A stretch of DNA of 64,000 bases from Verrucomicrobiota bacterium (GCA_049509875.1 JBEKZM010000017.1:2529-66528), one strand, 5' to 3'. Counted from the stretch's first letter, positions 30,893 through 49,590 are shown. The notes: generated by a model not told the origin, from the sequence alone. Made by a program: numbers and translations.

Positions 30893-31009
30893 ACCGATTC
30901 GCGATAGACGATTTGAACACTCTGCCGGGCGGTGAGAACATCGATATTCTTGCGACCTCATTGAATTTTTGAATTAACGGCTGTCGTCCCGGTCTGTTAG
31001 AAATCAGTT

Positions 31010-31711
31010 GTGCGCAATGTTCCGCCCAATCTGTTTCCGGTCCGCGGGGCCATGGGCTGCTGCCATTTTCTTTATGATGGCGACAACAGCATTCTGTTGG
31101 ATACGGGGCTGGCTGGCGAGACGATCTATCTGCGCCGGCTGTTTCGCCGCCTGGGGCTCAAGCCGCAATCGCTCAAGGCCATCGTGCTCACGCACGGCCA
31201 TCTCGATCACACCGGCAATCTCGCGCGGCTCAAGGATTGGAGCGATGCAACCATTTACGCACATCCCCGCGAACAGGCGCACGTCGACGGCCAATACCCG
31301 TATCAGGGCGTGAACCGCTGGTGCGGCCGGCTGGAGGCCTTCGGCCGCAAGGCGCTTGGGTACCGGCCGGTGAAGATCGATCAGTTTCTCGCCGACGGAC
31401 AAGTCCTGCCATTCTGGGGCGGGCTGGAAGTGATCCATCTGCCCGGCCACACGCTCGGGCACTGCGGATTTTACAGCGCCAAGCACGACGCGCTCTTCAG
31501 CGGCGACATGATGGCCAGCTATTTCTTCAACGTTCACAAGCCCTGTGCCATGCTCAACAGCGCACCCGAGTTGCTGCCGGCCAGCGCCGACCGAATCCGC
31601 CGGCTCCGCCCGCGCTGGATTCTGCCTTTCCATTTTGACGTATTGGACGGCGAACTTCATCGCCGGCGGTTCGTGAAGTTGTACGGGCTGGCGGATTGGG
31701 CCGCCGCGTAG
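31010..31711 (+). CDS. MBL-fold metallo-hydrolase
   Basis: LTHGHLDHTGN (HxHxDH) and a later HLPGHTLGH. Confidence 0.75.
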   Translation: MRNVPPNLFPVRGAMGCCHFLYDGDNSILLDTGLAGETIYLRRLFRRLGLKPQSLKAIVLTHGHLDHTGNLARLKDWSDATIYAHPREQAHVDGQYPYQGVNRWCGRLEAFGRKALGYRPVKIDQFLADGQVLPFWGGLEVIHLPGHTLGHCGFYSAKHDALFSGDMMASYFFNVHKPCAMLNSAPELLPASADRIRRLRPRWILPFHFDVLDGELHRRRFVKLYGLADWAAA

Positions 31712-31752
31712 CCCGGCGCGGCAGGTTCGTGGTTAGACCACTTAGTGGCGTG

Positions 31753-31770
31753 GCCCCCGTTCTTGGGGGC
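31753..31770. terminator. Weak GC hairpin between convergent genes (possible bidirectional terminator)
   Basis: GCCCCC-gttctt-GGGGGC lies between the MBL stop (31711) and the stop of the last gene of the minus-strand operon (31792). There is no U-tract on either strand. Confidence 0.25.
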
Positions 31771-31791
31771 AATGCGGTGGGCGGCTCGATC

Positions 31792-32220
31792 TCAGGGCGC
31801 GCCCTTCCCCGGCCAGAAATCCATGGTAATCGTGGTGCCTGCTCCCGGCGCCGATTCGATGTGAAAGTGATCCACCAAACTGCGCGAGCCAGGCAACCCT
31901 GATCCCAGCGTGCCAGCTTTGGCGTACTCCAAAAGCCGTTCCGGGTGCTCGATGCCCTTGCCCTTGTCCGACACGATGATACGTAGTCCGTGCTTGTCGC
32001 CCTCGGCAACCTGGCCAATTCGGATTTCTCCGGCACAGCCGGCGTGTTGAACCACATTGCGCGTGATTTCAGAAATCACCGTGGCGAGCCGCGTCAAAAT
32101 CGCAGGAGGAAAACCCATTTTAGTGGCCTCGTCCCGGCCCACGAATCGCGCCAAAAGCACGTCTTGCACCTTGGCAATTGGCAGGCGGGCCAGTTCAACC
32201 CAGATAATGTTTTCGTTCAT
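31792..32220 (-). CDS. RsbW/SpoIIAB-like anti-sigma-factor-type serine kinase (HATPase_c_2)
   Basis: N-box EITRNVVQHA, G1 SDKGKGI and G2 GSGLPGS are present in 142 aa. ATG 32220 is preceded by GGAG. The gene lies 13 nt after the upstream gene. Confidence 0.7.
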   Translation of the reverse strand: MNENIIWVELARLPIAKVQDVLLARFVGRDEATKMGFPPAILTRLATVISEITRNVVQHAGCAGEIRIGQVAEGDKHGLRIIVSDKGKGIEHPERLLEYAKAGTLGSGLPGSRSLVDHFHIESAPGAGTTITMDFWPGKGAP

Positions 32221-32233
32221 TGGTGGTGGCTCC

Positions 32234-33316
32234 TTAGGTTTCAAGCGGCACCAGCACGCTGACGGTTGTCGCATCAGCGCCCGATTCGATGGCGAATTCG
32301 CACCCATGCAGGCGGGCGGCGCCTTGGGCCAGCGCCAGCCCCAGCCCAAGTCCCTGCGGTTTTCTGCTGCCGCACCAGAACTGCTTGAAGGCGCCGATCC
32401 GCGAAATCTGGTCGGCGTTCATGCCCGCTCCGCGGTTGCCAATCGTCAAGGACCAGAATTCACGCTCCCCGCGGCCCTTGACCTCAATGGGCGTTCCCGG
32501 AGCGGAAAACTTGCAGGCGTTGTCCACCAGCTCTTCCACGAGCCAGACCAGGTATTCCTCACTGAAAGACAAATCAATTGGCTCACACGTGAGGGCGAGA
32601 TCTCTCTCCCGTTTCCAATTTCGGCAGACTTCCCGCGCTACACGATCGACCACGGTTCCGGCTGCGACGAGCTGTCCAGTTCTCACCAATTCAAAGCGAT
32701 TGGCGTAGAGCTGCGGCAGTTGGGCATAAAGATGGAGCCGCCGCATCATGCGCCGCAAACGCGCCGATTCCTGGACCACGGACTTATGCATCGCGGCGAC
32801 CTGGGTGTCCTGCCCGGCATATTTGAGCGCCAGCAAATTCGTGACGGTCGTGATCCGATCGAGCGTCTCCAAAACCTCCGACGGCACCGAGCCGGCCACC
32901 GCCAGGCTGACCTCTTCGGCGCGGAGACGATTTTCCTCAAGCTGGCGGTTCCGTTTCTCCAGGCGGCGGCGCACTGAGCCGATGAGCGCCTCTGGCTGGC
33001 AGGGTTTGGTGATGTAATCATCGGCGCCTGCCTCCATCCCGTGGCGCAGGTCGTCGTTGGCCACCAGCGCCGTGAGGAAGATAAATGGTATCATCGCCGT
33101 CCGCGGATTGTCCCGTACGGCTTGGAGGACCCCGAAACCATCCAAAAGCGGCATCATGATGTCGCAAAGGATGAGATCTGGAATCGAGTTAATCGCCGTC
33201 GCTGCTCCCAGCCTGCCGTTTTCGGCTTCGAGCGTCTCGAAACCTTCAAAACGGAAGATCTGGGCCATCTGCTTGCGAATGGCATCATCGTCTTCAATGA
33301 TCAATATTCTGTGCAT
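32234..33316 (-). CDS. Response-regulator receiver fused to a histidine-kinase-like DHp/HATPase module lacking the phospho-acceptor His
   Basis: REC domain: MHRILIIEDDD...LILCDIMMP...DYITKP. HATPase: LVDNACKFS...IGNRGAGM...GLGLGLALA. At the H-box position the sequence is PSEVLETL, where the paralogues have SHEFRTPL. Confidence 0.75.
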   Translation of the reverse strand: MHRILIIEDDDAIRKQMAQIFRFEGFETLEAENGRLGAATAINSIPDLILCDIMMPLLDGFGVLQAVRDNPRTAMIPFIFLTALVANDDLRHGMEAGADDYITKPCQPEALIGSVRRRLEKRNRQLEENRLRAEEVSLAVAGSVPSEVLETLDRITTVTNLLALKYAGQDTQVAAMHKSVVQESARLRRMMRRLHLYAQLPQLYANRFELVRTGQLVAAGTVVDRVAREVCRNWKRERDLALTCEPIDLSFSEEYLVWLVEELVDNACKFSAPGTPIEVKGRGEREFWSLTIGNRGAGMNADQISRIGAFKQFWCGSRKPQGLGLGLALAQGAARLHGCEFAIESGADATTVSVLVPLET

Positions 33317-35712
33317 ATAAATTTCTGTTGCTGGCTCTCCGCGTGCGACCGGGGTATTGTGATTGGTATTTCCACCCAGACAGTGGTTCCCGTGCCTTCC
33401 TGGCTTTCAAGCCGAATTGTGCCCCGATGCAGATCCACAAACTGTTTGACTATGGCCAGGCCCATGCCCGAGCCCGGACGGTTGCCGACATTCGCCGCGC
33501 GGTGAAAGGTCTGATAAAGCTTGGCGAGGTCGGCGGCCGGAATTCCGATGCCTGAATCGCTGACCTTAAATTCAAGGCGCGGTTCCGACGACGGATCAGG
33601 GTCGCCACCTGGCTGCGGACTCCCGCCAATCCGCTTCACTTCCAGCTTCACGGGTTGGCCATCGGAAGAATACTTGACCGCGTTGCTAAGAAGATTACCC
33701 AAGATGTGCCGTAAAATCTTCTCGTCAAGACAGGCTTCGCCCACGGCGGAGTCAACCTGGAGTTCGATGGTACGGGGTGAACCATCGGGGCTTTGCCCTT
33801 CCGCGATTATCCGCCGGCAAAGCGTCCCCACTTCCACCCGCGCCGGTTTGCATTCCATTTTGCCACTGGTGCAAACACCATGAACCAGGAAGTCAGTCAA
33901 CATCTTGGTCATGCGCCCAACGGCGCCGTGGATTTCCTTGAGTTGCTCAGACCGTTCGGCGTCAGTCATCGTTTGCCCATAACCGCCGAGCAAATCGGCA
34001 GCCATGGTGATAACGGACAAGGGGGTGCGGAACTCATGGGAAACCATGCTCACAAAGCGGCCCTTGATTTGGGATAACTTCTGCTCGTGCTCGAGCGCCA
34101 GGCGGGAACGCTCCTCCTTCTGCTTATGGTCGGCCAACTCCTCGGCAATCCGCCTGCGTTCGGTAATGTCGCGGGCAATACCGACCATGCCATTATAACC
34201 ACCTTTGTCGTCGAAAACGGGCGACTCAATCGTTTCAAACCAGCGGCTGCAGCCGACGGCATCCAGCACGCAGTTCTCGCTGCGGACAGGTTTCCCCGAG
34301 CTGATGACTTCACGGTCTCCATTGAAAAATTCAGCCGCGCGTTCTGGAAAAATCTCGGAGATCGTCCGGCCGATGAGGCTTTCCAGCGATTGACCAATAA
34401 TGCGGGCCAATGGCTCGTTGACGGCCAGATACCGTCCTTGGGCATCCTTGAGCCAGGCGGGATCGGGAATGTTATTGAGAATCTGCGTTTGCAGACGCTG
34501 GCTTGCGCGCAGGGCCTCCTCAGCCCGTTTGATCCGGCTGATGTCCTCTTTCACGGCGACATAATGGGTGATCCTGCCCTGATCATCCCGGAGGGGCGAG
34601 ATGGTGGCCGCTTCCCAGTAAAGCTCCCCGTTCTTCCGCCGGTTATGGAATTCGCCGCGCCACTCCTCGCCCGCAGCAAGGGTGGCCCACATTTGCCGGT
34701 AGGCTTCAGGCGGTTTATCACCTGATTTGAGCACCCGGGGGTTTTTCCCGCGCACTTCCGCGAAACTGTACCCAGAAACAGCACAAAACTTTGGATTGAC
34801 GTATTCGATCCCGCCGTTGAGATCAGTAATGACAATGGACACCGGACTTTGCTCCACTGCGCGTGAGAGTTTGCGCAATTGCGATTCGGCTCGTTTGCCT
34901 TCCGTAATGTCGCGGAACGTCCAGAGCCTGCCGTAGTAAGTGCCATCCGCGTGAATCACGGGTGACGTGCAACAGTCGAGCACCGTCCCGTCCTTAAGTT
35001 CGATTTCATCCCGGCTCATTTCGCTCGGGTGGGCGTAGAGATAGACGACTTTTTCAACAAACTTTTCGGGATTTTTTGTCCTGATCGAGGACCACACCAG
35101 CTGTTTCAGGTGGACGTTATCTTCCGTGCTGGGCGGAGGGAGCTTGAACAAATCGGACAACGCGCGGTTTTGCAGAAGAATCTTTCCCTGCTCGTCGGTG
35201 ACGAGGATTCCGTCAATCAACGTGTTCGCCTGGGCCTCTAGAAAGCCCGTTTTCCAGCGGAAAGCATCTTCCGCCTGCTGGCATTCGGTGACGTTTTCGA
35301 GGACCACCTCCTCGGCGCGAAGCAGGCTTTCCTGGATCTGGCGGTCTCGCTTTTCCAAGCGGCGGTTCACGGAGTCTAGTAGCGTCGCCGGCTGGTACGG
35401 CTTGGTAATGTAATCATCGGCCCCTTCGTCCATTCCATGACGCAGGTCCTGGATCGCACCCAGCGCGGTGAGGAAGATGAATGGTATCATCGCCGTCTTC
35501 GGACTTTCCCGCAAAGCTTGCAGAACGCCGAAGCCATCCAAATCCGGCATCATGATATCGCAAATGATGAGATCTGGAGGCGAGTCAATCGCCGCCGCCG
35601 CCCCCAGCCTGCCGTTTTCGGCTTCGTGTGTTTCGAAGCCTTCAAAGCGGAGCATCTGGGCCATCTGTTTGCGCATGATTGGCTCGTCTTCAATGATCAA
35701 TATTCTATGCAT
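33301..35712 (-). CDS. Hybrid sensor histidine kinase: N-terminal REC, three PAS domains, HisKA, HATPase
   Basis: REC: MHRILIIEDEP...DLIICDIMMPDLDG. PAS blocks are present (for example SIVITDLNGGIEYVNPKFCAVSGY). H-box SHEFRTPLSVI, N-box LGNLLSNAVKYS, G-boxes DSGIGIP and GSGMGLAIV. Confidence 0.85.
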   Translation of the reverse strand: MHRILIIEDEPIMRKQMAQMLRFEGFETHEAENGRLGAAAAIDSPPDLIICDIMMPDLDGFGVLQALRESPKTAMIPFIFLTALGAIQDLRHGMDEGADDYITKPYQPATLLDSVNRRLEKRDRQIQESLLRAEEVVLENVTECQQAEDAFRWKTGFLEAQANTLIDGILVTDEQGKILLQNRALSDLFKLPPPSTEDNVHLKQLVWSSIRTKNPEKFVEKVVYLYAHPSEMSRDEIELKDGTVLDCCTSPVIHADGTYYGRLWTFRDITEGKRAESQLRKLSRAVEQSPVSIVITDLNGGIEYVNPKFCAVSGYSFAEVRGKNPRVLKSGDKPPEAYRQMWATLAAGEEWRGEFHNRRKNGELYWEAATISPLRDDQGRITHYVAVKEDISRIKRAEEALRASQRLQTQILNNIPDPAWLKDAQGRYLAVNEPLARIIGQSLESLIGRTISEIFPERAAEFFNGDREVISSGKPVRSENCVLDAVGCSRWFETIESPVFDDKGGYNGMVGIARDITERRRIAEELADHKQKEERSRLALEHEQKLSQIKGRFVSMVSHEFRTPLSVITMAADLLGGYGQTMTDAERSEQLKEIHGAVGRMTKMLTDFLVHGVCTSGKMECKPARVEVGTLCRRIIAEGQSPDGSPRTIELQVDSAVGEACLDEKILRHILGNLLSNAVKYSSDGQPVKLEVKRIGGSPQPGGDPDPSSEPRLEFKVSDSGIGIPAADLAKLYQTFHRAANVGNRPGSGMGLAIVKQFVDLHRGTIRLESQEGTGTTVWVEIPITIPRSHAESQQQKFICTEY

Positions 35713-35726
35713 ATAAAATCCTGCTG

Positions 35727-37487
35727 CTAATTCGCCGTCTGGACTGGTCCAGCGGCCGGCAACTCCACCCACACCTTCGTTCCTTTCCCTTCTTCGGTCT
35801 CAAAACGAATCGTGCCCCCCAGCAGATCCACGAACTGCTTGACGATGGCCAGGCCCATGCCGGTCCCGGGGCGGTTGCCGACATTGGCCGCCCGGTGAAA
35901 GGTCTGATAGAGCTTGGGGAGGTCGGCCGCGGGAATTCCGATGCCCGAATCGCTGACCTTAAATTCAAGTCGGTGTTCCGACGACGGATCAGTTCCGCCA
36001 TTTGGCTGCGGACTGCCGCCAATCCGCTTCACTTCCAGCGTCACGGGGCGGCCATCGAAAGAATACTTGACCGCATTGCTGAGGAGATTACCGAGGATAT
36101 GCCTCAATATTTTATCGTCGAGCCAGGCTTCGCCCACGGCGGAGTCAACCTGCAGTTCGATGGTACGGGGCGAACCACCATGGCTTCGCCCTTCCGCGAT
36201 TATCCGCCGGCAAAGGGCCTCCACCTCCACCCAAGCGGGCTGGCACTCAATTTTCTTGCTCGCGCAATTGCCGTGGATGAGGAAGTCATTCATCATTTCA
36301 GTCATGCGCTCGACGGAGTTTCGGATTTCGTTGAGGTGCTCGGAACGCTCGGCTTCGGTCATCTTATCCAAGTAACCGTCCAGCAACTCGGCCGCCATGT
36401 TGATAACGGACAAGGGGGTGCGGAACTCATGCGAAACCAGGCTCACAAAACGGCTCTTGATCTGGGATGACTTTTGCTCGTGTTCGAGCGCCAGGCGGGC
36501 GCTTTCCTCATTCGCCTTGTGTTCGGCCAATTCCTGGGCGGTGCGTTTCTGTTCGGTAATATCGCTGGCTATGCCGGAGAGGCGAATCAGCTTGCCGGCG
36601 GCATCGCGGACTTGAAAACCACGGTCATGAATCCAGCGGATCGTGCCATCAGGACGGGCGACGCGATACTCGACGCTAACCTCCGGTGCGTCTCCCATGA
36701 GGGTAGTGAAAACGCCGAATACATGCTCACGTTCCTCGGGGAGGATCGCTTCAACCCATTGGTGCGGATTGGCGTACAAACTCTCCATCGAACGGTCCCA
36801 AATCAATTTATAACCCGCACTCACGTAGTGGATCGTTTTGAAGTCGGGTGAACATATCCAGAACACATCGGTGATGTTGTCCGCCAACTGGTGGAACTTC
36901 TCCTCGCTCTCGCGCGACGCCTCTTGGGCCCGCTTCCGTTCAGTGATGTCCTCGATGGTACCAACGCGACCGGTGGCTTCGCCACCCTCGGCAGGAATTG
37001 TCCGCGAACGAATCTGCGCCCAACGCTGGTCGCCACGCGTATTTACGAACCGAACCTCACGGATAAACTCCTGCCCTGCCTGCCGAGCACGGTCTCTTTC
37101 CTCCAAAAAGGCTGGCGCATCGTCGGGGTTCAGGGCGCGCTGCCACCCATCGCCCAGAGATTCCTCCGCCGTGAGACCGCTGATGTCTTGCCAGTACGAA
37201 TTCGTGTAAATGCAGCGGCCGGCGGCGTCCAATTCAAAGATGCCGATGGGCGAGCAAGCACTCAGGCTGCGGTAACGTTGTTCGCCGACCTCAAATTTCT
37301 TATGCGATGCGACCAGATCGGCGTTCGTGCGGGCCAATTCGCGTTGGAGATTGGCCAGTTCATTGTTGATGCGGCTCAACTCCTCGTAAAAGTGGTCGTC
37401 ACGGCGATTGAGCACCTGGCCGCTCGGGACCGGATCCTGTGCCGCAGCCAGGGGGGCGATGACGGGATTGGTGGTGTCCTGTTTCAT
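35727..37487 (-). CDS. Cytoplasmic PAS-PAS sensor histidine kinase
   Basis: There is an N-terminal coiled coil and two PAS domains (IGIFELDAAGRCIYTNSYW and VFWICSPDFKTIHYVSAGY). H-box SHEFRTPLSVI plus an HATPase domain. The start overlaps the stop of the B12-binding gene as ATGA. Confidence 0.85.
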   Translation of the reverse strand: MKQDTTNPVIAPLAAAQDPVPSGQVLNRRDDHFYEELSRINNELANLQRELARTNADLVASHKKFEVGEQRYRSLSACSPIGIFELDAAGRCIYTNSYWQDISGLTAEESLGDGWQRALNPDDAPAFLEERDRARQAGQEFIREVRFVNTRGDQRWAQIRSRTIPAEGGEATGRVGTIEDITERKRAQEASRESEEKFHQLADNITDVFWICSPDFKTIHYVSAGYKLIWDRSMESLYANPHQWVEAILPEEREHVFGVFTTLMGDAPEVSVEYRVARPDGTIRWIHDRGFQVRDAAGKLIRLSGIASDITEQKRTAQELAEHKANEESARLALEHEQKSSQIKSRFVSLVSHEFRTPLSVINMAAELLDGYLDKMTEAERSEHLNEIRNSVERMTEMMNDFLIHGNCASKKIECQPAWVEVEALCRRIIAEGRSHGGSPRTIELQVDSAVGEAWLDDKILRHILGNLLSNAVKYSFDGRPVTLEVKRIGGSPQPNGGTDPSSEHRLEFKVSDSGIGIPAADLPKLYQTFHRAANVGNRPGTGMGLAIVKQFVDLLGGTIRFETEEGKGTKVWVELPAAGPVQTAN

Positions 37488-38557
37488 GTGGCGATGGACT
37501 CGTTGGTGAGGCGATTGGCCAAAAGGATGGCCCCTTGGGCGTCAGGGGCAGAACCATCCGCCCCAATGATCTTCCAGAGGTCCGGATCGGTTTTAAAGGG
37601 ATAACCACCAACCAGGATTTTCACATGGCCGCAGTCGGGCGTGCGGCGCACGGCGGCAATGAGGGACTCGACCGCCCGGACATGATAGGTGATGGTGGCC
37701 GAAATGGCGAGGGCATCAGCCTGGCGTTGAACGAGGGCCTGGACCACGGCCGATCCGGGCATATTCGCGCCGAGATAATAGGTCTGCCAGCCATCCATCT
37801 CGAAGAAATCGCTCACCATGCGGGCGCCCATTTCATGGAGATCACCGGAAACGCAGGCGGCCACGAGCGCGCCGCGGGTTTTCTCACCGCCGAAGACGTA
37901 AGGATAGAGCTGGGACATGATGAGCTGGGTGGCAGCAGTGCAATAGTGTTCCTGGGCCACGCTGATCTGGTTCACCTGCCAGAGCCGTCCGATCTCATAT
38001 TGGGTGCGCTGGAAGACCTGAAGGTAGAGGTCGCGCACGGCGGTGCCCTGCCGGGCAGCGTCGAGGATCAGCTTGCTGGCTATATGCCGTTCCCCCCGGA
38101 GCAGCGCCTGCAGATATTGACCGGCCAGCGGCGCGAGCGCAGTGCCCTCAGCGATGAAGCCCGGCACGTCGTCTGCCAATTGCGGCAATTGCTGGAGTCC
38201 GCGGTCCAGGAAAACGCAGGCGAGCCGGCTAAACTCCGGCAGCAGTTCCCGCTGCAGGGATTCCTTCATGGTTTCGAGCAGACCCGCGAGGTCCATTGCC
38301 GGAATGCCGCGCTTGGCGAGCATGACCTTGGCCCAGCCAACGTAATCGCCGAACAACGCGGCGCTGTCGGCCGCGATTGCCTGCGCAAGATAGGCAAGAT
38401 GATAACCGGCGTCCTCGAGACATCGATCGCGCCCGGCCGTTCCGTAACGTTGTGCCAGTTCTGGATGGCGGACAAATTCGCGAGCCACCATGAGCGCAGC
38501 CAGAGCGGACCGCCGGTTGTCCAGCGTATCGCTGACCTGCTGGTTTAAGGAATTCAT
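37484..38557 (-). CDS. Stand-alone cobalamin (B12)-binding protein, CarH-type photoreceptor-like module without DNA-binding domain
   Basis: Four-helix B12-binding_2 segment with W193-x9-E203-H204 (GRLWQVNQISVAQEH, nt 37946-37981). Rossmann B12-binding domain with DxHxxG (GDLHEMG, nt 37826-37843). The ~170-aa helical N-terminal domain has no recognised family. Confidence 0.8.
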   Translation of the reverse strand: MNSLNQQVSDTLDNRRSALAALMVAREFVRHPELAQRYGTAGRDRCLEDAGYHLAYLAQAIAADSAALFGDYVGWAKVMLAKRGIPAMDLAGLLETMKESLQRELLPEFSRLACVFLDRGLQQLPQLADDVPGFIAEGTALAPLAGQYLQALLRGERHIASKLILDAARQGTAVRDLYLQVFQRTQYEIGRLWQVNQISVAQEHYCTAATQLIMSQLYPYVFGGEKTRGALVAACVSGDLHEMGARMVSDFFEMDGWQTYYLGANMPGSAVVQALVQRQADALAISATITYHVRAVESLIAAVRRTPDCGHVKILVGGYPFKTDPDLWKIIGADGSAPDAQGAILLANRLTNESIAT

Positions 38558-38563
38558 GCGCGT

Positions 38564-38998
38564 TCACGAGCAGATGTGCTCGAAATGGCGGACGTCCTGA
38601 GCCCCGGGCACGAGCTTCAAGCCTTGGGGAATGCCGTGGTGCGATTCGTGGTAAAGATGGCTGCGGTGCCAGAGCTTGAAGCTGCCGGCATCGGTCCAGT
38701 AAGTGACGAGCCAGATTTCCTCCGGTTTGTCCAGTGGACTGAGGACTTCCATACGCACGAAGCCGGGCTGATCATCCACCAAATGCGGGCGACGCCGGAA
38801 CGCTTCCTTGACCTCGGCCGTCTTGTCATTGGCGATGACAAATTTGCTGAGCACCACGAATGGGCCGGCCACCTTGGCGGAGCGCTCTGGCGGAGACACG
38901 GAAGGGGCCGGTCCGATGGCTTGGTGAAAAGGGCAGCCAGTGGCGCCGGAGGACGGCATTTCTATCTTCACGATTGGGGTGGATTCAGCGTTTGACAT
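38564..38998 (-). CDS. ABM-fold protein, IsdG/HmoA-like putative haem-degrading monooxygenase
   Basis: VVLSKFVIANDK...GFVRMEVL...WLVTYWTDAGSFKLWHRSHLYHESH aligns by eye with the Asn/Trp/His positions of IsdG. The N-terminal extension carries GCPFH, a Cys-Pro motif. Confidence 0.6.
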   Translation of the reverse strand: MSNAESTPIVKIEMPSSGATGCPFHQAIGPAPSVSPPERSAKVAGPFVVLSKFVIANDKTAEVKEAFRRRPHLVDDQPGFVRMEVLSPLDKPEEIWLVTYWTDAGSFKLWHRSHLYHESHHGIPQGLKLVPGAQDVRHFEHICS

Positions 38999-39025
38999 GG
39001 CAGGTTATTTTGTTAATTGGCGTCG

Positions 39026-41098
39026 TTAAAACAACTCCACATTGTCGCCCAAGTCTCCGCTGGCTGCTGGTTTCGTTTGTGCCACCGGAAGCGTCGGCGT
39101 CGGCGGGCTGATTTTCGTCGCCATCAATTCAGCCGGGCGCGGGGGATCTTCCGGCCGCTCACTTGGAGGAGGGACTTCGCCGGAGGGGTCGGCAATGCGG
39201 GGCGCGGGTGACGCGGAAAAATCGTCGAACAGCTCGATTGAAGACTCGGAAGCGTGCGAGCTTGCCGGCGCCAGCGCCGGTTGTAAAGCGGTCGCGTGCG
39301 CTTGCCGCTCCGACTCCATGGTGTATTTGGATTTGAGACTGTCAATCCTCTGGGAGGCCGCAGTCTCGTCCAACGATGCCGGACCGGCCGCGCCGCCCCA
39401 AGCCACTAAATCCTGAAAGAAGCCGCTGGACCGAAGTCTGGCTTGGGCGACGGTTACGGGAAATTGGATATCCGCCATGACCTTCTCGACGGATGCGGCA
39501 AAGGTCTCTTGTCGCTGAGTGACCCCCCGGATCTGAACGGGGATGGCACTTTCCAGGTCCGCGAGCTTTTTCATGGAGAGCGCCGATTCCTCGGAAAGGA
39601 CTGCCTGTTCCGCCTGTCCGAGTATCTGAAAGTCTTCCAGCCGCTGCCGGAGATTGTTCACCATCTCCGAGGCGTGGCTGAGCACCCCCCCCATTCGTGC
39701 CACGTGCTCGATGACATCTTCCGAAATGAAGTTCACGCGCCCTGCCAGCACTTCCAAGGTGGCTCCGGCGGGTGTACGGATGGCGAAGACCTGGGCGTTC
39801 AACCCGGCTAGCCGAACGTCGCCAGCCAAGGCGGTCGCTTTGGCGGTGCAGTCAACAAAGCTGGCTTGCAGGGGCTCGAAAGCCGAGACAATGCCGGCAA
39901 TTTTCTGCACCGCCTGCTTCACAATACTCAGAATCTCATCGACGCCAGCCTGGCACTGCCGGTTGACTTTGGCGTCCAGCGTGGCGCCGCACACCTTGAC
40001 CGCCAATTCGGCGGCGGCACCGACCTCGGTGCGCAGGCTCTGGATGCCTGACTTAAGACTATCGGCGGCTTGGTTGAGCTGGTCGAACATACTTTGGACC
40101 TGCTGCAATTGAATCTGGCCGGCCTGGAACACGAACTGGCGCGCCTGCGCATCAGTGGCCGGCGTGGCGGCCCGGCCAGCGCCCAGATGCGCGCGCATCT
40201 CATCCATCGCTCCGCCGACGTGCTCGATTCTTTGACGGGTGATGTCCTGGCATTGCAGGGCCATGACGATGCCATTGATGTGGCCCGTGACCGCCTGGTT
40301 TCGCTGGGACAAGTCGGTGGCCCCGGCCCCGGAGCGGATGAGCGCCTGGCTCAGTGCACCCAACTGGGCGCGAGTCGCCGCCAAAGTGATCGTCACTTTC
40401 TTTCGATGCTCTTGAATCGAGCCGGAAATTTGCCGCATCAGGCTGTGGGCGATTCGCTCGCTCGCCGCGAGTTCATCAAATTGCCTTTCCATCGTGCTGC
40501 GGACATCATGCACCGTCCGGTTCACATGGTCGGAAAGAGTGAAGAAAGCCTGCTGCACTTCCACCGGATGGCGGCTAGCTTCGATGCGGAATGACATCGT
40601 GATGAAGCTTAGCGGCAGGAGAACGCGCATGAGTTCATCGCGCTGCTGGGAAGCCTGGGCGAGCCGTTGCTGCAGCTCGTTAAACATGGCGAACACGTGA
40701 TCGTATTGATCATAGCTGGCCAGCACCAGGTCCTCCGCTTTTTTGAGCAATTGGAAGGCGAATTGGACGGCGGCGTCCTGGGTCTGGCCCAAGGTCAGGT
40801 CGGTGAGTGACTGGCATTCCTTTTGGTTTTCGCCCAACTGTCGTGCCAGGTCTTCCAGGCCATTGCCGGTGGCCAGGAATTCCGTCTCCATGCCACGCGC
40901 CAGAGATGAGAGAGAATCCTTTTCTTCCTGGAGCCGGGAGGCCCAGACGCCCGCTTCCATTCGCCCGGAGGATCTGGCGACAGTCGCACGATACCACGCC
41001 CGGGCTCCCAGGCCATGGCCGCGCGTCAGTAAAGCCCTGCCCGCCTGCTGCAAGCGGCGAGCTTGCTCGCGGATCTTTATGTCGGTTGGCCAACGCAT
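39026..41098 (-). CDS. Cytoplasmic coiled-coil protein with two degenerate MCP-tip-like segments and a Pro-rich tail (atypical chemoreceptor-like protein)
   Basis: ATG 41098 lies 14 nt after the cheB stop. The segments LSFITMSFRIEASRHPVEVQQAFFTLSDHVNRTV and LAGLNAQVFAIRTPAGATLEVLAGRVNFISEDV echo [34 protein letters not shown] of the neighbouring MCP. There is a QCQDITRQRIEHV motif. The tail contains SIELFDDF and ends DNVELF. Confidence 0.55.
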   Translation of the reverse strand: MRWPTDIKIREQARRLQQAGRALLTRGHGLGARAWYRATVARSSGRMEAGVWASRLQEEKDSLSSLARGMETEFLATGNGLEDLARQLGENQKECQSLTDLTLGQTQDAAVQFAFQLLKKAEDLVLASYDQYDHVFAMFNELQQRLAQASQQRDELMRVLLPLSFITMSFRIEASRHPVEVQQAFFTLSDHVNRTVHDVRSTMERQFDELAASERIAHSLMRQISGSIQEHRKKVTITLAATRAQLGALSQALIRSGAGATDLSQRNQAVTGHINGIVMALQCQDITRQRIEHVGGAMDEMRAHLGAGRAATPATDAQARQFVFQAGQIQLQQVQSMFDQLNQAADSLKSGIQSLRTEVGAAAELAVKVCGATLDAKVNRQCQAGVDEILSIVKQAVQKIAGIVSAFEPLQASFVDCTAKATALAGDVRLAGLNAQVFAIRTPAGATLEVLAGRVNFISEDVIEHVARMGGVLSHASEMVNNLRQRLEDFQILGQAEQAVLSEESALSMKKLADLESAIPVQIRGVTQRQETFAASVEKVMADIQFPVTVAQARLRSSGFFQDLVAWGGAAGPASLDETAASQRIDSLKSKYTMESERQAHATALQPALAPASSHASESSIELFDDFSASPAPRIADPSGEVPPPSERPEDPPRPAELMATKISPPTPTLPVAQTKPAASGDLGDNVELF

Positions 41099-41112
41099 TG
41101 GATTTTGATTGG

Positions 41113-42195
41113 TTAATTTGTCCGCCCTGCCGCGCGCACCACTTCGCGCGCGAGTTGTCCGAGCGGGTAAATTTGATTCACACCGCCCCGCTTGATGGCC
41201 TCCGCGGGCATGCCGAAGACGACACAACTTGCTTCGTCCTGCGCGAAGGTGATCGCGCCCGCCTCCTTCATTTCCAACATTCCGCGTGCGCCATCGTCGC
41301 CCATGCCGGTCATGATGACACCAATGGCATTTTTGCCGGCGTAGCGCGCGGTAGAGCGGAAAAGCACGTCCACGGACGGCCGATGGCGGCTGACGAGCGG
41401 CCCGTCTTTGACCTCGACATAATAGCGCGCGCCGCTGCGTTTGAGCAGCAAGTGCCGGTTCCCCGGGGCGATGAGGGCCTGACCGCGGAGCACCGAATCG
41501 CCGTCGGCAGCTTCTTTAACGGTCACCGCGCACAGGCCGTCGAGGCGCTGCGCGAAACTGGCGGTGAATTTTTCGGGCATGTGCTGGACAATGATGATTC
41601 CCGGCGCGTCCGGCGGCATGGCCTCGAGAAAAATTCGCAGCGCCTCGGTTCCGCCCGTGGACGCTCCCACCGCGACAATTCGTTCGGTGGTCTGGATCAT
41701 CGCCATTGAAGCCGGTTTGGCCAGCATGGCGTCGGCCGTGAGTTTTGGTGCCACGACCACTTGGGGGGCGGGCTTGGGACCAGGGTGGCCGAGGCGCGCC
41801 TGCGCGGCGGATTTTACGGCATCACAAATTCGTATGCAGGATTCTTCAAGAAACTGCTTGGTGCCGAGTTTGGGTTTGGTGATGATTTCGACGGCGCCTT
41901 TTTCCAACGCGGCCAGTGCGGTTTCTGAACCCTTTTCAGTCAGGGTGGAGCAGATGACCACCGGGATGGGGCATTGGGCCATCAGCTTTTCCAGAAACGT
42001 GATGCCGTCCATGCGCGGCATCTCCACATCCAGGGTGATCACGTCGGGCACCTGCTGTTTGATGCGTTCGACGGCAATGTAAGGATCCGCCGCCGTGGCC
42101 AAGACCTCGATCTGGGGATCGCTTTCCAGAATCTCTTTCATGGTCTGGCGCACCACGGCGCTGTCGTCCACCACCAGCACTCGGATTTTTTTCAT
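41113..42195 (-). CDS. cheB: Protein-glutamate methylesterase/glutaminase (REC plus CheB catalytic domain)
   Basis: [46 protein letters not shown]. Confidence 0.9.
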
Positions 42196-42707
42196 ATTTT
42201 GGTCGCTCCCCGGGACAGCCATCTGTGCAGCACCTCGCCCGTTTGCGTATTGAACATGATTTTGCAGCCGCGGTTGCCGCCCACGCTCTGGGCCTTGATG
42301 CGAAACCGAGCCGCCTTGAGAAGGCGTCGCGCCATGGCGATATTGGCATGACCGATCGAGCGATCGCTATGGGAATCGCCGCCCAGGTCAACGACATTGC
42401 CGCCGCCGAACAATTTCACCTCCACCTCACTGGGCGGCAATCCGAGCCGGAAAAAACGCCCGGCCATCGCGGGGAGGGCGTCGCTCAGATAGCGGAAACG
42501 ACGGGCCGGCTCCGGGCCGGGCGGAATTTCCCCGTGCGGTTCCGGCAGCAGGGCGTGGCAGATGGCCGCCAGACGAAAGCGGGCATTGAACATCGTTACG
42601 GACACACAGGATCCGAGCAGGGTCAGAACCCATTGCGGTTCCTGCGTGACCAGCAACTCGCCGGGCTGCAATTGAACCTGCGGTATCGGAGGACCCGGTG
42701 GTTTCAT
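42192..42707 (-). CDS. cheD: Chemoreceptor glutamine deamidase
   Basis: [21 protein letters not shown] and [17 protein letters not shown]. There are ATGA overlaps at both ends. Confidence 0.85.
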
Positions 42708-43579
42708 AATGGTTTCCGGTACACGGCGGAAGCAATGCACTTCACCGGCAGTGTCAAGCCCGCCAGGGATTCAGAATGCCCCACGAAAAGATAGCCTCCG
42801 GGAACCAGATTCCGGCAGAGTTTGTGGATGACGGCTTCCTGGGTGGGCTTGTTAAAATAGATCATCACATTGCGAAAGAAAATCACGTCAAACATCTCCT
42901 TCACGCCATAATCCGCCGCCATGAAGTTCAGTCGGTGATAGGAGATTTTAGCCCGCAACTTCGGGATGATGCGCACCTGTTTTTGGGCCGGGTCTTTGCT
43001 GCGCAGCAAGTACTTGGTCCGCCAGGCCGGCGGCACGGGAATGACTCGTTCTTCGTCATAGATGCCAAGCTGGGCATGGTCGAGCACCTTGGTGGAAATG
43101 TCCGTGGCCAGCAGGGAAAAATCGAAGCCGGTCCGCACCTCGCCGAATTCACTTAGGACCATGGCCAGGGTGTAAGGCTCCTCGCCCGAGGAGCAGCCGG
43201 CACACCAGAGTTTCAAGCGCCAGGGCCGTTCAAGGGCGCCGGCGCGAGTCCTGGGATCCAGAGCCGGCAGTGCCGTCCGGGCCAGGTAGTCAAAGTGCTG
43301 AGACTCGCGGAAGAAGTCTGTCTTGTTGGTCGTGATGGCATTGATGAAATGCACGCGCTCTTCGTTGCCTTGGGCTGAGTCAAAGAGATAGCTCTGGTAT
43401 TGATCCAGCGTGCCCAGGCCCAGGGCCCGCAGCCGGCGTTGCAGCCGGCTTTGCAGCATGGGCAGCTTGGCGGGCGACATCGTGATGCCCAATTCCCCGG
43501 TGATGTATTTGCAGAATCGAGCCAGACTGTCGGCCGACAACCCCGGGGTCTCCAGCGTTTGCGGCACGGGGGAACTCAT
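42704..43579 (-). CDS. cheR: Chemotaxis protein methyltransferase
   Basis: TNKTDFFRE and WCAGCSSGEEPYTLAM (SAM-binding). The ORF is 291 aa. Confidence 0.9.
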   Translation of the reverse strand: MSSPVPQTLETPGLSADSLARFCKYITGELGITMSPAKLPMLQSRLQRRLRALGLGTLDQYQSYLFDSAQGNEERVHFINAITTNKTDFFRESQHFDYLARTALPALDPRTRAGALERPWRLKLWCAGCSSGEEPYTLAMVLSEFGEVRTGFDFSLLATDISTKVLDHAQLGIYDEERVIPVPPAWRTKYLLRSKDPAQKQVRIIPKLRAKISYHRLNFMAADYGVKEMFDVIFFRNVMIYFNKPTQEAVIHKLCRNLVPGGYLFVGHSESLAGLTLPVKCIASAVYRKPL

Positions 43580-43652
43580 GGGTTGCCTCCGGTCCAGTCA
43601 ACCGATGACCGTGTCGCCCGCACGCAGGCCCGGCTCTTAAGCATTTGGATTT

Positions 43653-44066
43653 TCATTGTTCAGTCGTCCGGCTTTCGTCGCCATTCCAGATATTTGCCCC
43701 ATAATTCTTGTCCAACGCCGCTTCGACCGCTGCAACCAACGACGTGCTTGAGAACGGTTTTCCCAATGAGATATCCGCGCCCAAACCGCGTGCCTCAGCG
43801 AACCTGTTCGATGGCGATTGGTAGGAGCTGATGGCGATGAACGGCACGTTAAGCTTCATCGCCCGCACCTTCCTCATGATCTCCAGCCCGTCCGGAGGTG
43901 GCATATGGATATCCGTGATCACCAGGTCCACGCGTTCCTTGCGTAGCATTTCCAGCGCTTCGGCTCCCGACGACATGGACCACACCTCGTGGGATTCTCG
44001 CCGGAGAACTGATTTCACGAAGGTGAGAACCGATTCCGAGTCGTCTATGACCAGGATTTTCGCCAT
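43653..44066 (-). CDS. Single-domain response regulator (CheY-like) with short C-terminal extension
   Basis: MAKILVIDDSESV...DLVITDIHMPPPDGLEI...LGKPF. Confidence 0.85.
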   Translation of the reverse strand: MAKILVIDDSESVLTFVKSVLRRESHEVWSMSSGAEALEMLRKERVDLVITDIHMPPPDGLEIMRKVRAMKLNVPFIAISSYQSPSNRFAEARGLGADISLGKPFSSTSLVAAVEAALDKNYGANIWNGDESRTTEQ

Positions 44067-44100
44067 GAGATGGCTTGCGTCTTGCGATTGGATCGGGCCT

Positions 44101-44610
44101 TTAAGCCGGAACTGCCGCGGCTTCGGCGGCAATCTCCGCGGTTTTCAGGAGCGCCGGGCCGGCCGAGGCAAAGACCCGGTTGATGTCGAGGATGATGATG
44201 AACTCATCACCTCGCCGGCCCATGCCCTGTATCAAGTCCGTGCGCCAGCGCATGGCGATGCGCGGGGGCGGATTGATCTGGCCGGCTTCCAGTTCGATGA
44301 CTTCATGCACGCTGTCGGCGATGCCGCCCAGGACCGTGGTCTCGCCATCGAGCTCCAGCTCCAACACGACGATGCGGCTGTTGATCGTGTCGGGCGTGGA
44401 AGGCAGGCCGAACTTAAGGCGCAGGTCCACCACGGGAATGGCTTTGCCGCGGACGTTGACCACGCCGCGCATGTAGTCGGGCGCGGTCGGCACCTTGGTG
44501 ATTTGGGGGAGCTCCAGCACTTCGCGCACCTGCGTGACGTTGATGGCGAACAGTTCGTCACCCAACTTGAAGGTGATATACTGTGCAGTTTCGTTAAAGG
44601 TCGTGCTCAT
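44101..44610 (-). CDS. cheW: Chemotaxis coupling protein CheW
   Basis: YITFKLGDELFAINVTQVREVLE...VNVRGKAIPVVDLRLKFG...IIILDINRVF. Confidence 0.9.
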   Translation of the reverse strand: MSTTFNETAQYITFKLGDELFAINVTQVREVLELPQITKVPTAPDYMRGVVNVRGKAIPVVDLRLKFGLPSTPDTINSRIVVLELELDGETTVLGGIADSVHEVIELEAGQINPPPRIAMRWRTDLIQGMGRRGDEFIIILDINRVFASAGPALLKTAEIAAEAAAVPA

Positions 44611-44630
44611 AGGCTCAAGTGCTGGGTGGC

Positions 44631-46730
44631 TTAGTAACTGGTGAACTCCTTGTCTTGAGCGTCGCCGTGGCCATTGCCATTACTTTTCCGGGGTTCGGCT
44701 CCCAAGTTGATGGCAACGGTGGCCGGTTTGGCGGCCCGGGGCTTCTCCATGTGCGATGGAGCGATCACCAATGGCTTCTTTCCATTCGCAGCGGGCTTCA
44801 TTGAAGGAGCGGCCTTGATGGAGGCACTGCTGCGTTTGGACGAGGCGTCGTCCATTTTAAAGAAACTGATGGATTGCTGGAGCTGTTCGGCCTGACTGGA
44901 CAACTCTTCGGAGGTGGAAGCCATTTCCTCCGAAGCGGAGGCGTTCTGCTGGATGACTTGGTCGAGTTGTTGAATGGCCTTGTTGACCTGGGAGGCGCCG
45001 GTGTTCTGTTCGGCGCTGGCGGCATTGATTTCCTGGACCAATTCGGCCGTCTTGCGGATGTCCGGCACCAGTTTGGTGAGCATTTCGCCCGCACCTTGGG
45101 CGACCCGGACGCCATCGGTGGCGAGTTTGGTGATTTCCGCGGCCGCACCCTGGCTGCGTTCGGCCAGCTTGCGCACTTCGCTGGCGACCACCGCAAAGCC
45201 TTTGCCGTGTTCGCCGGCCCGGGCGGCCTCGACGGCCGCATTGAGCGCGAGCAAGTCGGTCTTGCGGGCGATTTCTTCGATAATGTTGATCTTTTCCGCG
45301 ATTTCCTTCATTGCGGTCACCGTCTGTCCAACAGCCTCCCCGCTGGCCTTGGCATCTTCGGCGGCTTGGGAGGCCAGCTTGTCAGTCTGTTTGGCGTTGT
45401 CGGCATTTTGCTGGATGCTCGAAGTCATTTCCTCCATTGAAGAAGTCGTCTCCTCGGCGGAGGCCGCCTGCTCGGACGCGCCTTGAGAGAGTTGTTGGGC
45501 CGTGGCGCTCATCTCCTCGCTGCCTTGAGCGACGTTATTGGCGGCGCTGACGGTTTCACTGACGACGGTGCGTAACTTTTCGACCATTCCATTGAGCGCT
45601 TCCAAGGTCAGCCCGATTTCGTCCCGATTCTTGATTTCTGCCGTGCGGGTCAGATCGCCCCCGGCGACCGCCCCGGCCAATTGCGATGCCTGGTTCAAAG
45701 ATTTGATGATGTAGCTTAGCAGCCAAGTCGTGGTTCCCACGCCCACCAGGATGGCGGCGATCAGAATTCCGATCAGAAGATTCCGCGCCATGGCATATTC
45801 TTTGACTGCGGATTCCTTGGCCGCTGCCATTTCTTTATTATTCTTGTCAATGATGAATTCCAATGCCGCTTCGGAGGCGTCGGCGAGCTTGCGGCCGTTG
45901 CCGGTTGAAAGCTTCATGGCTTCCGAATTGCCATTTTCCATGGCGAGCCGGCTCACTTGGTCGTGAATATCGAGAAACTTGTTCCAAGCGGAGCGGAAAA
46001 GGGCCAGTTTGGCCTGTTCATCCGCGTTGGCGGCTTTGTCCAGTTCGGCCAAACGGGCGGTTATTTGCGTCTTGAGTTCCTCAATCTGCTTGGCTTGGGC
46101 CTCCATCGCCGTCTTGTCGGTTTCGATGATTAAGTTTTTTTCCGCCCGGTGGATGGCCAGCAAATTTTGTCCCGCGTGGGAGGCACTCAAAGCGGCTTGC
46201 ATCAGCTCAGGGGTCTCCTTCGCGCGCTTGGCAAACTGCGCTTCGAGGTCCGACAGAATGGCTTCAGCCGCATCCAGCGCGTTGCGACCCTCGGTTTTGG
46301 AAAGCGCCTGCGCCCGCACATTCGAATTGAGCAAGGCAAGCTCACTCACTTTTTTGTGATTTTCCTTGAACTGCTGCCATTGGTCCGCAAATTCCTTTAC
46401 TTTGGCTTTGCCTTCGCCAGTAGCCAATGCGTCGAGCTTTTGCCGGCTTTCCTCCAAGGCCGCCATATAAATGTCAATGTTCGCGGCTTGTTGATTCTTA
46501 CCCTCGACGGTGTCATCCAAAATCATGTTCTTCTCCCCCCGGCAGACTTTCAAGAATTGCTGGTCAATCTCTCCGGCCAACTCAACCTTGGCGGCATTGT
46601 TATCGACAATGGTATTGAGCTGTTCGTTAATGGTGCTGAGTTTCTTGATCCCCAGCACCGCCGAGACCGTCAGCATGCCCAGCACGACGGTGAAACCGAG
46701 AATGAGTTTTGTTTTTATTGTTAATTTCAT
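44631..46730 (-). CDS. Methyl-accepting chemotaxis protein with large helical (HBM/double 4HB-like) periplasmic domain, HAMP and MCP signalling domain
   Basis: TM1 (LILGFTVVLGMLTVSAVLGI), a ~300-aa Lys/Ala/Glu-rich helical ectodomain and TM2 are present. The tip is [35 protein letters not shown]. The C-terminus is ...KEFTSY. Confidence 0.9.
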   Translation of the reverse strand: MKLTIKTKLILGFTVVLGMLTVSAVLGIKKLSTINEQLNTIVDNNAAKVELAGEIDQQFLKVCRGEKNMILDDTVEGKNQQAANIDIYMAALEESRQKLDALATGEGKAKVKEFADQWQQFKENHKKVSELALLNSNVRAQALSKTEGRNALDAAEAILSDLEAQFAKRAKETPELMQAALSASHAGQNLLAIHRAEKNLIIETDKTAMEAQAKQIEELKTQITARLAELDKAANADEQAKLALFRSAWNKFLDIHDQVSRLAMENGNSEAMKLSTGNGRKLADASEAALEFIIDKNNKEMAAAKESAVKEYAMARNLLIGILIAAILVGVGTTTWLLSYIIKSLNQASQLAGAVAGGDLTRTAEIKNRDEIGLTLEALNGMVEKLRTVVSETVSAANNVAQGSEEMSATAQQLSQGASEQAASAEETTSSMEEMTSSIQQNADNAKQTDKLASQAAEDAKASGEAVGQTVTAMKEIAEKINIIEEIARKTDLLALNAAVEAARAGEHGKGFAVVASEVRKLAERSQGAAAEITKLATDGVRVAQGAGEMLTKLVPDIRKTAELVQEINAASAEQNTGASQVNKAIQQLDQVIQQNASASEEMASTSEELSSQAEQLQQSISFFKMDDASSKRSSASIKAAPSMKPAANGKKPLVIAPSHMEKPRAAKPATVAINLGAEPRKSNGNGHGDAQDKEFTSY

Positions 46731-46738
46731 GTTTTCTA

Positions 46739-48850: not shown

Positions 48851-48858
48851 GGGCAGGA

Positions 48859-49224
48859 TTAAGGCAGTAATTTCTTGGCTACCATCACGAGTTGTTCAAT
48901 GCGGAACGGCTTGACGATCCAGCCGCTTGCGCCCGCCGCCCGTCCGGCTTGTTTTTTGGCGTCCTGCGATTCGGTCGTGAGCATGACGATGGGAATGTAT
49001 TTGCATTGCGGCAGCGCGCGAACCTGGCGAATCAATTCGATTCCGTCCATGTTTGGCATGTTCAGGTCGGTAATGAGCATGTGCGGAGCACTGCTGGAGA
49101 TCTTGGCGAGTGCGTCCTGCCCGTCCACCGCCTCAACGACGTCATAGCCGGCGTTGCGAAGCGTGAAGCTGACCAATTGGCGAATGCTGGCCGAATCATC
49201 GGCCGTCAGAATGGTTTGGCTCAT
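48859..49224 (-). CDS. cheY: Single-domain response regulator CheY
   Basis: MSQTILTADDSASIR...MLITDLNMPNMDGIELI...GASGWIVKPF. 121 aa. It lies 8 nt upstream of cheA. Confidence 0.85.
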   Translation of the reverse strand: MSQTILTADDSASIRQLVSFTLRNAGYDVVEAVDGQDALAKISSSAPHMLITDLNMPNMDGIELIRQVRALPQCKYIPIVMLTTESQDAKKQAGRAAGASGWIVKPFRIEQLVMVAKKLLP

Positions 49225-49228
49225 GGGC

Positions 49229-49537: not shown

Positions 49538-49590
49538 TTGGATCAGACGGAAATTCGGGCTTGCTCTATTCACCATTCATAAATTCGCGA

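Follow-up and report, generated by a model that had tools for sequence, protein, structure and literature searches.

The window analyzed here is a stretch of 64,000 nucleotides (nt) from a Verrucomicrobiota bacterium (GCA_049509875.1 JBEKZM010000017.1:2529-66528). Its minus strand carries three adjacent genes for an ABM-fold protein, a cobalamin-type protein, and a kinase, and this work concerns the identity of these proteins and the evidence that they form a light-sensing unit. The first gene (38564-38998) encodes the 144-residue ABM-fold protein. A spacer of 6 nt separates its stop codon from the second gene (37484-38557), which encodes a 357-residue protein consisting of an N-terminal photoglobin followed by a CarH-type B12 module. 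The stop codon of the second gene overlaps the start codon of the third (35727-37487), which encodes a 586-residue kinase, in an ATGA at 37484-37487 that is consistent with translational coupling. The ABM gene, its distance from the second gene, and the ATGA overlap had all been placed at these coordinates in an initial annotation of the DNA, and they are confirmed. Positions are those of the window, and all features described below lie on the minus strand.

Assignment of the photocobilin

Photocobilins bind adenosylcobalamin (AdoCbl) and biliverdin side by side (PMC10979010). The family was established in 2024 on the basis of two actinobacterial proteins (Zhang et al., Nat Commun 2024, PMC10979010; structures 8J2W/8J2X/8J2Y), and an order with the globin at the N terminus is listed in the same work as a predicted group, not as a characterized one. 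The name "photoglobin" comes from a bioinformatic prediction in 2021, in which the globin may either precede or follow the B12 domains (Schneider et al., PMC8717448).

In the 357-residue protein, the photoglobin, a bilin-binding globin domain, spans residues 1 to ~130 (38168-38557) and includes W75 and the sequence C46-L-E-D49 (38411-38422). The B12-binding_2 four-helix bundle follows at residues 147-217 (37907-38119; Pfam PF02607, 1.1e-13). Direct reading of the sequence by script places W193-x9-E203-H204 (WQVNQISVAQEH) inside this bundle at 37946-37981. The Rossmann-type B12-binding domain covers residues 231-343 (37529-37867; Pfam PF02310, 5e-21) and contains D239-L-H241-E-M-G244 (37826-37843), in which H241 is the predicted lower axial His. 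The initial annotation had read both motifs and had proposed a CarH-type B12 module without a MerR head. Both claims hold, and the profile searches and the structure prediction that it had suggested as checks bear them out: the best solved relatives are the photocobilins and the cobalamin-binding domain of CarH. Its description of the N-terminal domain as ~170 helical residues of unknown family is right about the helices; the length is ~130 residues, and the family is that of the photoglobins and phycobiliprotein-type globins. Pfam gives only a weak, sub-threshold Phycobilisome match over residues 11-123, and the identical NCBI entry, from a Verrucomicrobiota metagenome-assembled genome (MAG), is annotated as a "cobalamin-dependent protein" and nothing more.

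The best sequence matches in the PDB are the photocobilins SasPcob (8J2W/8J2X, E 1.5e-31) and AbPcob (8J2Y). Each of these matches falls into two segments whose order is permuted: the B12 half of the query pairs with the N-terminal half of SasPcob, and the C-terminal globin of SasPcob pairs with query residues 32-97. When ten homologues were used to build a profile of residues 1-130, it retrieved the SasPcob globin at 4.6e-7, followed by a long series of phycocyanin and allophycocyanin chains. In the alignment to CpcA from this profile search, C46 coincides with the Cys that attaches the bilin, and D49 with the conserved Asp. SasPcob residues are numbered as chain index + 6, the offset between Trp61/Glu71/His72 of the published description and the aligned W55/E65/H66. 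With this offset, W193/E203/H204 correspond to SasPcob Trp61/Glu71/His72, D49 to Asp270, and W75 to Trp296. H241 is aligned with the His in the E/DxH motif of SasPcob, the lower axial ligand His108. The AdoCbl and biliverdin contacts named for SasPcob are Trp61, Glu71-His72, His108, Asp270, and Trp296, and Asp270 is its key biliverdin ligand (PMC10979010).

The 357-residue protein was modeled alone with AlphaFold2 from a 24-sequence alignment. The model has a predicted local distance difference test score (pLDDT) of 92 and a predicted template modeling score (pTM) of 0.86. The top Foldseek match in the PDB is 8J2W, the dark state of SasPcob, with a root mean square deviation (rmsd) of 2.0 Å over 211 columns, and the next is the cobalamin-binding domain of CarH (5C8A; TM 0.83, rmsd 2.8 Å). 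The pTM suggests a defined arrangement of the globin relative to the B12 part. The Foldseek alignment is confined to the B12 half because the position of the globin is permuted.

Homologues of the protein are numerous (more than 3862 at E <= 1e-10), and residue conservation was counted over 81 of them. W193, E203, H204, H241, and G244 are present in 81/81. In the globin, D49 is found in 80/81 and W75 in 79/81. Position 46 is variable: 54 sequences have Cys, 20 have Ser, and 4 have Thr. Cys/Ser/Thr variation and a CXQD motif have been described for photoglobins, in agreement with this pattern (PMC8717448, PMC10151467). The idea that Cys46 is an obligatory covalent bilin site was set aside because Cys occurs in only 54 of the 81 homologues and Ser or Thr in 24, and also because SasPcob holds biliverdin non-covalently (PMC10979010).

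These data, drawn from sequence and a predicted model, identify the 357-residue protein as a standalone photocobilin of the N-terminal-globin group. Its sequence and predicted fold are those of a photocobilin, and photoconversion and the binding of AdoCbl and a bilin are predicted properties. The missing MerR domain excludes it from the CarH proteins: a Pfam search of the protein for a MerR or helix-turn-helix domain gave no match. The NCBIfam CarH model scores 46.9 against a cutoff of 400. Earlier publications cover the photocobilin family with its two domain orders, the pocket position that holds Cys, Ser, or Thr, and the general signaling neighborhood.

The ABM protein and its genomic partners

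The ABM protein matches the Pfam ABM profile over residues 46-120 (5.7e-13), carries VIAND at residue 54 and KLWHRSHLYHESH at residue 108, and has TT1380, Bacillus subtilis HmoB, and MhuD as sequence relatives in the PDB. The NCBI version of the protein is 135 residues long and starts 9 codons downstream. The defining feature of IsdG-family enzymes is an Asn/Trp/His triad, which every characterized member requires (PMC5557675; PMC12670364, section 5.2). The initial annotation had aligned the protein by eye to this triad, taking the Asn of VIAND as the catalytic Asn. The Trp and His are kept. W110 and H120 (WHRSHLYHESH, 38639-38671) are the equivalents of IsdG Trp67 and His77 and are invariant in 72/72 members of a MAFFT family alignment, with the W+10 spacing of IsdG. 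The Asn was misassigned. N57 of VIAND is conserved, but the 72-sequence alignment places it in the loop after strand 1, and phmmer alignments to MhuD and TT1380 put Ser51 (38846-38848, strand beta-1) at the position of the catalytic Asn7 of IsdG and MhuD. Ser51 is found in 67/67 ungapped sequences of the family alignment, and Ser occupies this position in 119/120 of the closest homologues. The phmmer alignment is independent of the IsdG and MhuD reference sequences in the MAFFT alignment.

An AlphaFold2 model of the ABM protein agrees with the alignment and places Ser51 in strand beta-1 and N57 in the loop that follows. The predicted fold is beta-alpha-beta-beta-alpha-beta with a core pLDDT of 70-85, and a pLDDT below 50 predicts disorder for the N-terminal tail. 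The Foldseek matches of the model include TT1380, MhuD, and IsdI. Also in the Foldseek list is 6PLE, a point variant of MhuD with bound biliverdin, which shows that this fold can hold biliverdin. By its aligned residues, the ABM family is an IsdG-related Ser/Trp/His clade, and a definition based on the triad would exclude it.

The tail carries GCPFH at residue 21 (38924-38938), a Cys-Pro (CP) motif that resembles a heme-regulatory motif and is kept in either version of the protein. The initial annotation had singled out this motif, and it proves to be a conserved feature. CP is present in 112/117 tail-bearing close homologues, mostly as [GRH]CPFH, and recurs in ABM tails from distant phyla; the tail is missing from about half of the more distant homologues. 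Human heme oxygenase-2 carries CP heme-regulatory motifs in a disordered tail, and CP motifs are classically regulatory heme sites. The tail sequence of the ABM protein fits an accessory heme site of the heme-regulatory-motif type.

The linkage of the two genes was determined by a genome scan with one genome per species, which yielded 80 photocobilin loci from Verrucomicrobiota, Acidobacteriota, Gemmatimonadota, Planctomycetota, Proteobacteria, Myxococcota, Chloroflexota, Bacteroidota, Abditibacteriota, and other phyla. In 71/80 loci the gene immediately upstream, in the same orientation, encodes an ABM homologue (49-75% identity), and the gap is -28 to +35 nt. In three further loci the ABM gene is near the photocobilin gene in another arrangement. 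The pairing of an ABM protein with a B12 sensor had initially been called unusual. It is instead a standard cassette, because the ABM gene is directly upstream in most of these loci and they come from many phyla. In one Verrucomicrobiae MAG, a single contig (CAWFYE010000004.1) carries two ABM-photocobilin-kinase cassettes ~34 kb apart, L001 (49330-66397) and L005 (83468-100535), and their kinase output types differ.

In the reciprocal direction, metagenome contigs were scanned with the ABM alignment; of the 80 loci recovered, 70 have enough downstream sequence to be informative. The photocobilin gene comes right after the ABM gene in 53/70 and is near it in another arrangement in six more. In eight loci (L093, L095, L097, L098, L102, L105, L106, and L112, three of them near-identical), the ABM gene is followed directly by the gene for a bacteriophytochrome hybrid kinase (PAS_2, GAF, PHY, HisKA, HATPase, REC) with an N-terminal Cys motif. 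In L098, for example, the ABM gene occupies 3001-3429 and the BphP gene runs from 3576 onward. The bacteriophytochrome-linked ABM proteins are 75-87% identical to the photocobilin-linked copies and keep both the Ser and the CP tail. The heme oxygenase gene bphO normally occupies this position upstream of bacteriophytochrome genes. The only obvious need that bacteriophytochromes and photocobilins have in common is a heme-derived bilin, which suggests that the ABM protein supplies the chromophore. The bacteriophytochrome pairing is the strongest argument for the ABM protein as a chromophore supplier, and it argues against a role specific to B12.

ABM domains also occur in fusions. P0310 has an ABM domain fused to GGDEF plus kinase, and in L053 an ABM fusion is encoded right after the photocobilin gene (9059 onward) instead of before it. 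Canonical heme oxygenases fused to or clustered with photoglobin or B12 proteins are on record (PMC8717448, PMC10151467, PMC13446030). ABM monooxygenases are only briefly named among the photoglobin neighbors, where oxygenases are considered possible sensors or degraders of small molecules (PMC8717448). A literature search found no published link between IsdG-like proteins and photocobilins or bacteriophytochromes.

The kinase and the surrounding genes

The 586-residue kinase is the proposed effector of the photocobilin and consists of an N-terminal helix, two PAS domains, HisKA, and HATPase (Pfam). In ~58 of the 80 genome loci, the photocobilin gene and the gene after it overlap by 4 nt, as they do in the window. 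A HisKA/HATPase core is present in 61/75 downstream open reading frames (ORFs), and one (L071) encodes a GGDEF protein. Nearly all of these effectors, whatever their output domain and with the GGDEF protein included, have a helix (FYEELSRINNELANLQRELA) in common. Its consensus is [FLY][YF][ED]EL[ST]R.NNELANLQRELA[RK]KN. In the window kinase the helix (FYEELSRINNELANLQRELARTNADLVA) lies at residues 33-60 (37308-37391) with no sensor domain ahead of it, and in the commoner 400-residue kinases it is at residues ~140-167. Pfam does not cover the helix region. By analogy, the helix looks like the S-helix type, and S-helix, kinase, ABM, and heme oxygenase are listed as photoglobin neighbors (PMC8717448). 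A word-indexed homologue search with the 52-residue kinase helix returned a single fragment, and an exhaustive representative search with kinase residues 1-70 returned 70 proteins.

The usual partner kinase is a protein of ~400 residues, as in the downstream ORFs of L012, L020, L040, L054, L077, and many others. These kinases begin with a ~100-residue domain (GIALLCD..G.I..VLRDDLGL...DWEI.V) that is not in Pfam, and an INNE-type helix then occurs twice ahead of HisKA.

One of these 70 proteins, P0254 (726 residues), contains a photocobilin, the helix, PAS, and a kinase in a single frame, so that the helix and the B12 domain preceding it are in cis. In the available gene call, the N terminus of the photocobilin part is cut short. 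This fusion fits a photocobilin that acts as a sensor in trans in the other loci. The initial annotation had proposed a two-chain B12-gated kinase, and this idea gains support from the conserved 4-nt overlap, the conserved effector helix, and the one in-frame fusion.

A set of Che genes (CheY, CheA, MCP, CheW, CheY, CheR, CheD, and CheB by Pfam; 41113-49395) lies upstream of the three genes and is co-directional with them. The array runs from the Che genes through a 733-residue ORF to the ABM, photocobilin, and kinase genes with very short gaps. It continues with a REC-PAS-kinase paralogue, a REC-HATPase protein, and a small HATPase protein. The paralogue is an 823-residue hybrid kinase with REC, three PAS domains, HisKA, and HATPase (33301-35772; probable start ATG at 35712; Pfam), and it is a likely next step of the relay. 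The REC-HATPase protein has 360 residues (32234-33316; Pfam). The 586- and 823-residue kinases are 53% identical over 516 residues, and the REC domains of the 823- and 360-residue proteins are 76% identical. This paralogy, which extends over 31792-37487, suggests recent tandem duplication and domain shuffling.

The 733-residue ORF between cheB and the ABM gene (39026-41227) probably starts further downstream, for example at the Met at residue 44. Its product is largely helical and rich in Gln and Ala, and the C terminus is Pro-rich. Searches of Pfam, NCBIfam, and the PDB detected no relative, and there is no homologue in the 80 related loci. Che genes are near the cassette in only a few of the same loci. 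The initial annotation had treated a Che operon as part of the setting; the Che genes are particular to this genome and outside the conserved unit, because so few loci have them and none has the 733-residue ORF.

Promoters and terminators predicted in 31000-50500 were no more frequent than in shuffled sequences, which is evidence neither for nor against an internal promoter ahead of the cassette. An Rfam search for a cobalamin riboswitch or any other regulatory RNA near the cassette gave no match. In the first nucleotides of the window (7-254), Rfam identifies group II intron domains D1-D4 (RF02005, 104 bits, E 2e-28).

Proposed function and relation to known systems

We propose, with a probability of roughly 60%, that the locus is a three-gene light-sensing cassette in which the ABM protein supplies a bilin, the photocobilin is the sensor, and the kinase is the effector. 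The basis is the assignment of families and folds, the conservation of residues, and the gene order together with its conservation. These sequence features are far beyond chance (81/81 for the binding residues, ~58/80 for the overlap, and 112/117 for the CP motif). From this basis we infer heme cleavage, the identity of the bilin, the contact between photocobilin and kinase, the sign of regulation, and the link to Che. The photoglobin domain would bind a linear tetrapyrrole non-covalently through D49 and W75. The CarH-type module would bind AdoCbl in the base-off/His-on form through H241, with W193, E203, and H204 capping the adenosyl group. The ABM protein most likely cleaves heme to a bilin for the globin domain, and its CP tail may capture the heme. 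The presence of a tetrapyrrole enzyme next to the sensor is explained by the N-terminal domain being a bilin-binding globin. A light-driven conformational or oligomeric change of the photocobilin probably passes by protein-protein contact to the N-terminal helix of the kinase, which has no sensor domain of its own in front, and would alter kinase autophosphorylation. Light may then feed into a chemosensory-like pathway, as the cassette stands at the end of a Che-type array and is followed by two REC-containing paralogues.

A more tentative proposal, to which we give slightly less than even odds, concerns the chemistry of the ABM clade. It would be an undescribed class of bilin-producing heme oxygenase, with an IsdG fold, a Ser/Trp/His site, and a CP heme-capturing tail. 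This class would replace the BphO type as the dedicated supplier for photocobilins and bacteriophytochromes across many non-phototrophic phyla, and its product, biliverdin or another bilin, would be the native chromophore of the N-terminal-globin clade.

Several observations weigh against the cassette proposal. The catalytic Asn that defines the IsdG family is replaced by an invariant Ser, and the known IsdG-type enzymes mostly yield staphylobilin or mycobilin, not biliverdin (PMC12670364). The NCBIfam scores of the ABM protein are low (31.7 bits for HmuQ against a cutoff of 130, and 27 for heme oxygenase against 119), and Foldseek with the ABM model does not separate heme-degrading from non-heme ABM proteins. 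Five genome loci have a photocobilin without a nearby ABM gene, and no obvious canonical heme oxygenase was seen in these five, where the upstream ORFs were inspected by eye only. P0254 is a single case of fusion and could be a frameshift artifact at the ATGA overlap. The ABM domain is fused N-terminally to sensor-helix-GGDEF in P0310 and in the L053 ORF, which could mean a regulatory role; these fusions are compatible with either supply or regulation.

The ABM protein could instead be a non-enzymatic heme- or bilin-binding regulatory subunit or chaperone that senses, for example, heme, redox, or O2 via its CP tail and His-rich helix, with the bilin coming from a heme oxygenase encoded elsewhere. 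We consider this unlikely. CP motifs are classically regulatory, but about half of the more distant homologues lack the tail. The invariant Ser in place of the catalytic Asn points to a non-enzymatic role, whereas the Trp and His needed for heme ligation and ruffling are invariant as well. The GGDEF fusions would suit a regulator, yet biosynthetic heme oxygenases are also fused to photoglobins (PMC8717448). The tight translational coupling suggests stoichiometric partners; however, the two unrelated partners of the clade, photocobilins and bacteriophytochromes, have the bilin need alone in common, and the ABM gene occupies the bphO position.

It is improbable that the B12 module senses corrinoid availability or redox rather than light, as has been proposed for AerR/PpaA-type or SCHIC-like domains, and that the cassette is a cofactor or redox sensor. 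The SCHIC domain of AppA is among the weak PDB matches (4heh, E 0.004), but the closest solved relatives are proven photoreceptors, and the adenosyl-capping W193, E203, and H204 of the light-sensing CarH proteins and photocobilins are fully conserved. The host is a non-phototrophic Verrucomicrobiota MAG and the light role of the clade is predicted, yet the module is joined to a bilin-binding globin, and its ABM partner also serves bacteriophytochromes, which are light sensors. A methyltransferase corrinoid carrier of the MtbC/MtgC/MtaC type, suggested by automatic annotations (JGI 'methanogenic corrinoid protein MtbC1') and weak partial NCBIfam MtgC/MtbC matches, is rejected as very improbable: these matches reach 45-65 bits against cutoffs of 310-370, an ORF and Pfam survey found signaling genes and no methyltransferase genes near the photocobilin gene, and the Wx9EH motif and the globin domain are foreign to such carriers.

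The light-sensing cassette is our preferred reading, and some of its features appear to be undescribed. They are the near-obligatory, translationally coupled cassette of ABM protein, photocobilin, and effector; the signature of the ABM clade, with its Ser/Trp/His residues and CP tail; and the occurrence of bacteriophytochromes as alternative partners of this clade. Together they make a testable proposal for the chromophore source and the signaling partner of standalone photocobilins. The role of these proteins was called unclear by their describers, and they were shown to modulate an enzyme via protein-protein interaction (PMC10979010, section 8). The clade has thousands of members in Verrucomicrobiota, Acidobacteriota, Gemmatimonadota, Planctomycetota, Proteobacteria, and other phyla, and the fixed cassette names a candidate for both missing pieces, the bilin source and the signaling partner. 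If the Ser variant does make the chromophore, the range of heme oxygenase chemistry in photoreceptor biogenesis would be wider, the native pigment of the N-terminal-globin photocobilins would be identified, and a compact three-gene, green-to-red two-component light module would be available for optogenetics. In the window itself, the arrangement suggests a light input into the Che-like pathway of a soil or peat verrucomicrobium.

Among known systems, the photocobilins SasPcob and AbPcob are closest to the 357-residue protein. Both chromophore-binding modules are the same, as are the W-x-EH and D/ExH motifs, the lower axial His, and, in the globin, the biliverdin-holding Asp and Trp. SasPcob is also a standalone protein without an output domain and is the best match in both sequence and structure. 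The differences are the N-terminal position of the globin, which is opposite to the order in both characterized photocobilins, an identity to SasPcob of only ~31% over the B12 half, and Cys46 where SasPcob has Thr. In addition, the proteins of the window clade come with an ABM partner of their own and with a kinase that is translationally coupled. The predicted photoglobin family includes the N-terminal-globin architecture, and the pocket residues C46, D49, and L80 are numbered as in its modeled representative; the ABM linkage, the Ser variant, the CP tail, and the 4-nt overlap are not quantified in that work (PMC8717448). CarH from Thermus thermophilus and Myxococcus xanthus has the same AdoCbl four-helix bundle and Rossmann fold, the Wx9EH motif, and the His lower ligand. 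Unlike CarH, the window protein has no MerR DNA-binding domain and no His beside the Trp (W193-Q194), and it has an added bilin-binding globin and a predicted output through a separate kinase instead of DNA binding.

The closest characterized sequence relatives of the ABM protein are in the IsdG family (IsdG/IsdI, MhuD, HmuQ, HmoB, and LFO1). They have in common with it the ABM ferredoxin-like fold, the Trp and His with IsdG spacing, and the G-F and second Trp positions. The ABM protein differs in the Ser at the position of the catalytic Asn (PMC5557675, PMC12670364), in an extra His-rich helix (H111, H114), and in the CP N-terminal tail, and its clade is genomically tied to photoreceptors rather than to heme uptake. 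The bphO-bphP operons present the same gene logic, with a heme-cleaving enzyme gene (putative in the case of ABM) directly upstream of and co-directional with a bilin photoreceptor gene across taxa. They differ from the window locus in that the canonical heme oxygenase fold is all-helical whereas the window enzyme candidate has the ABM fold, and in that the receptor in the window is a photocobilin with a separate kinase.

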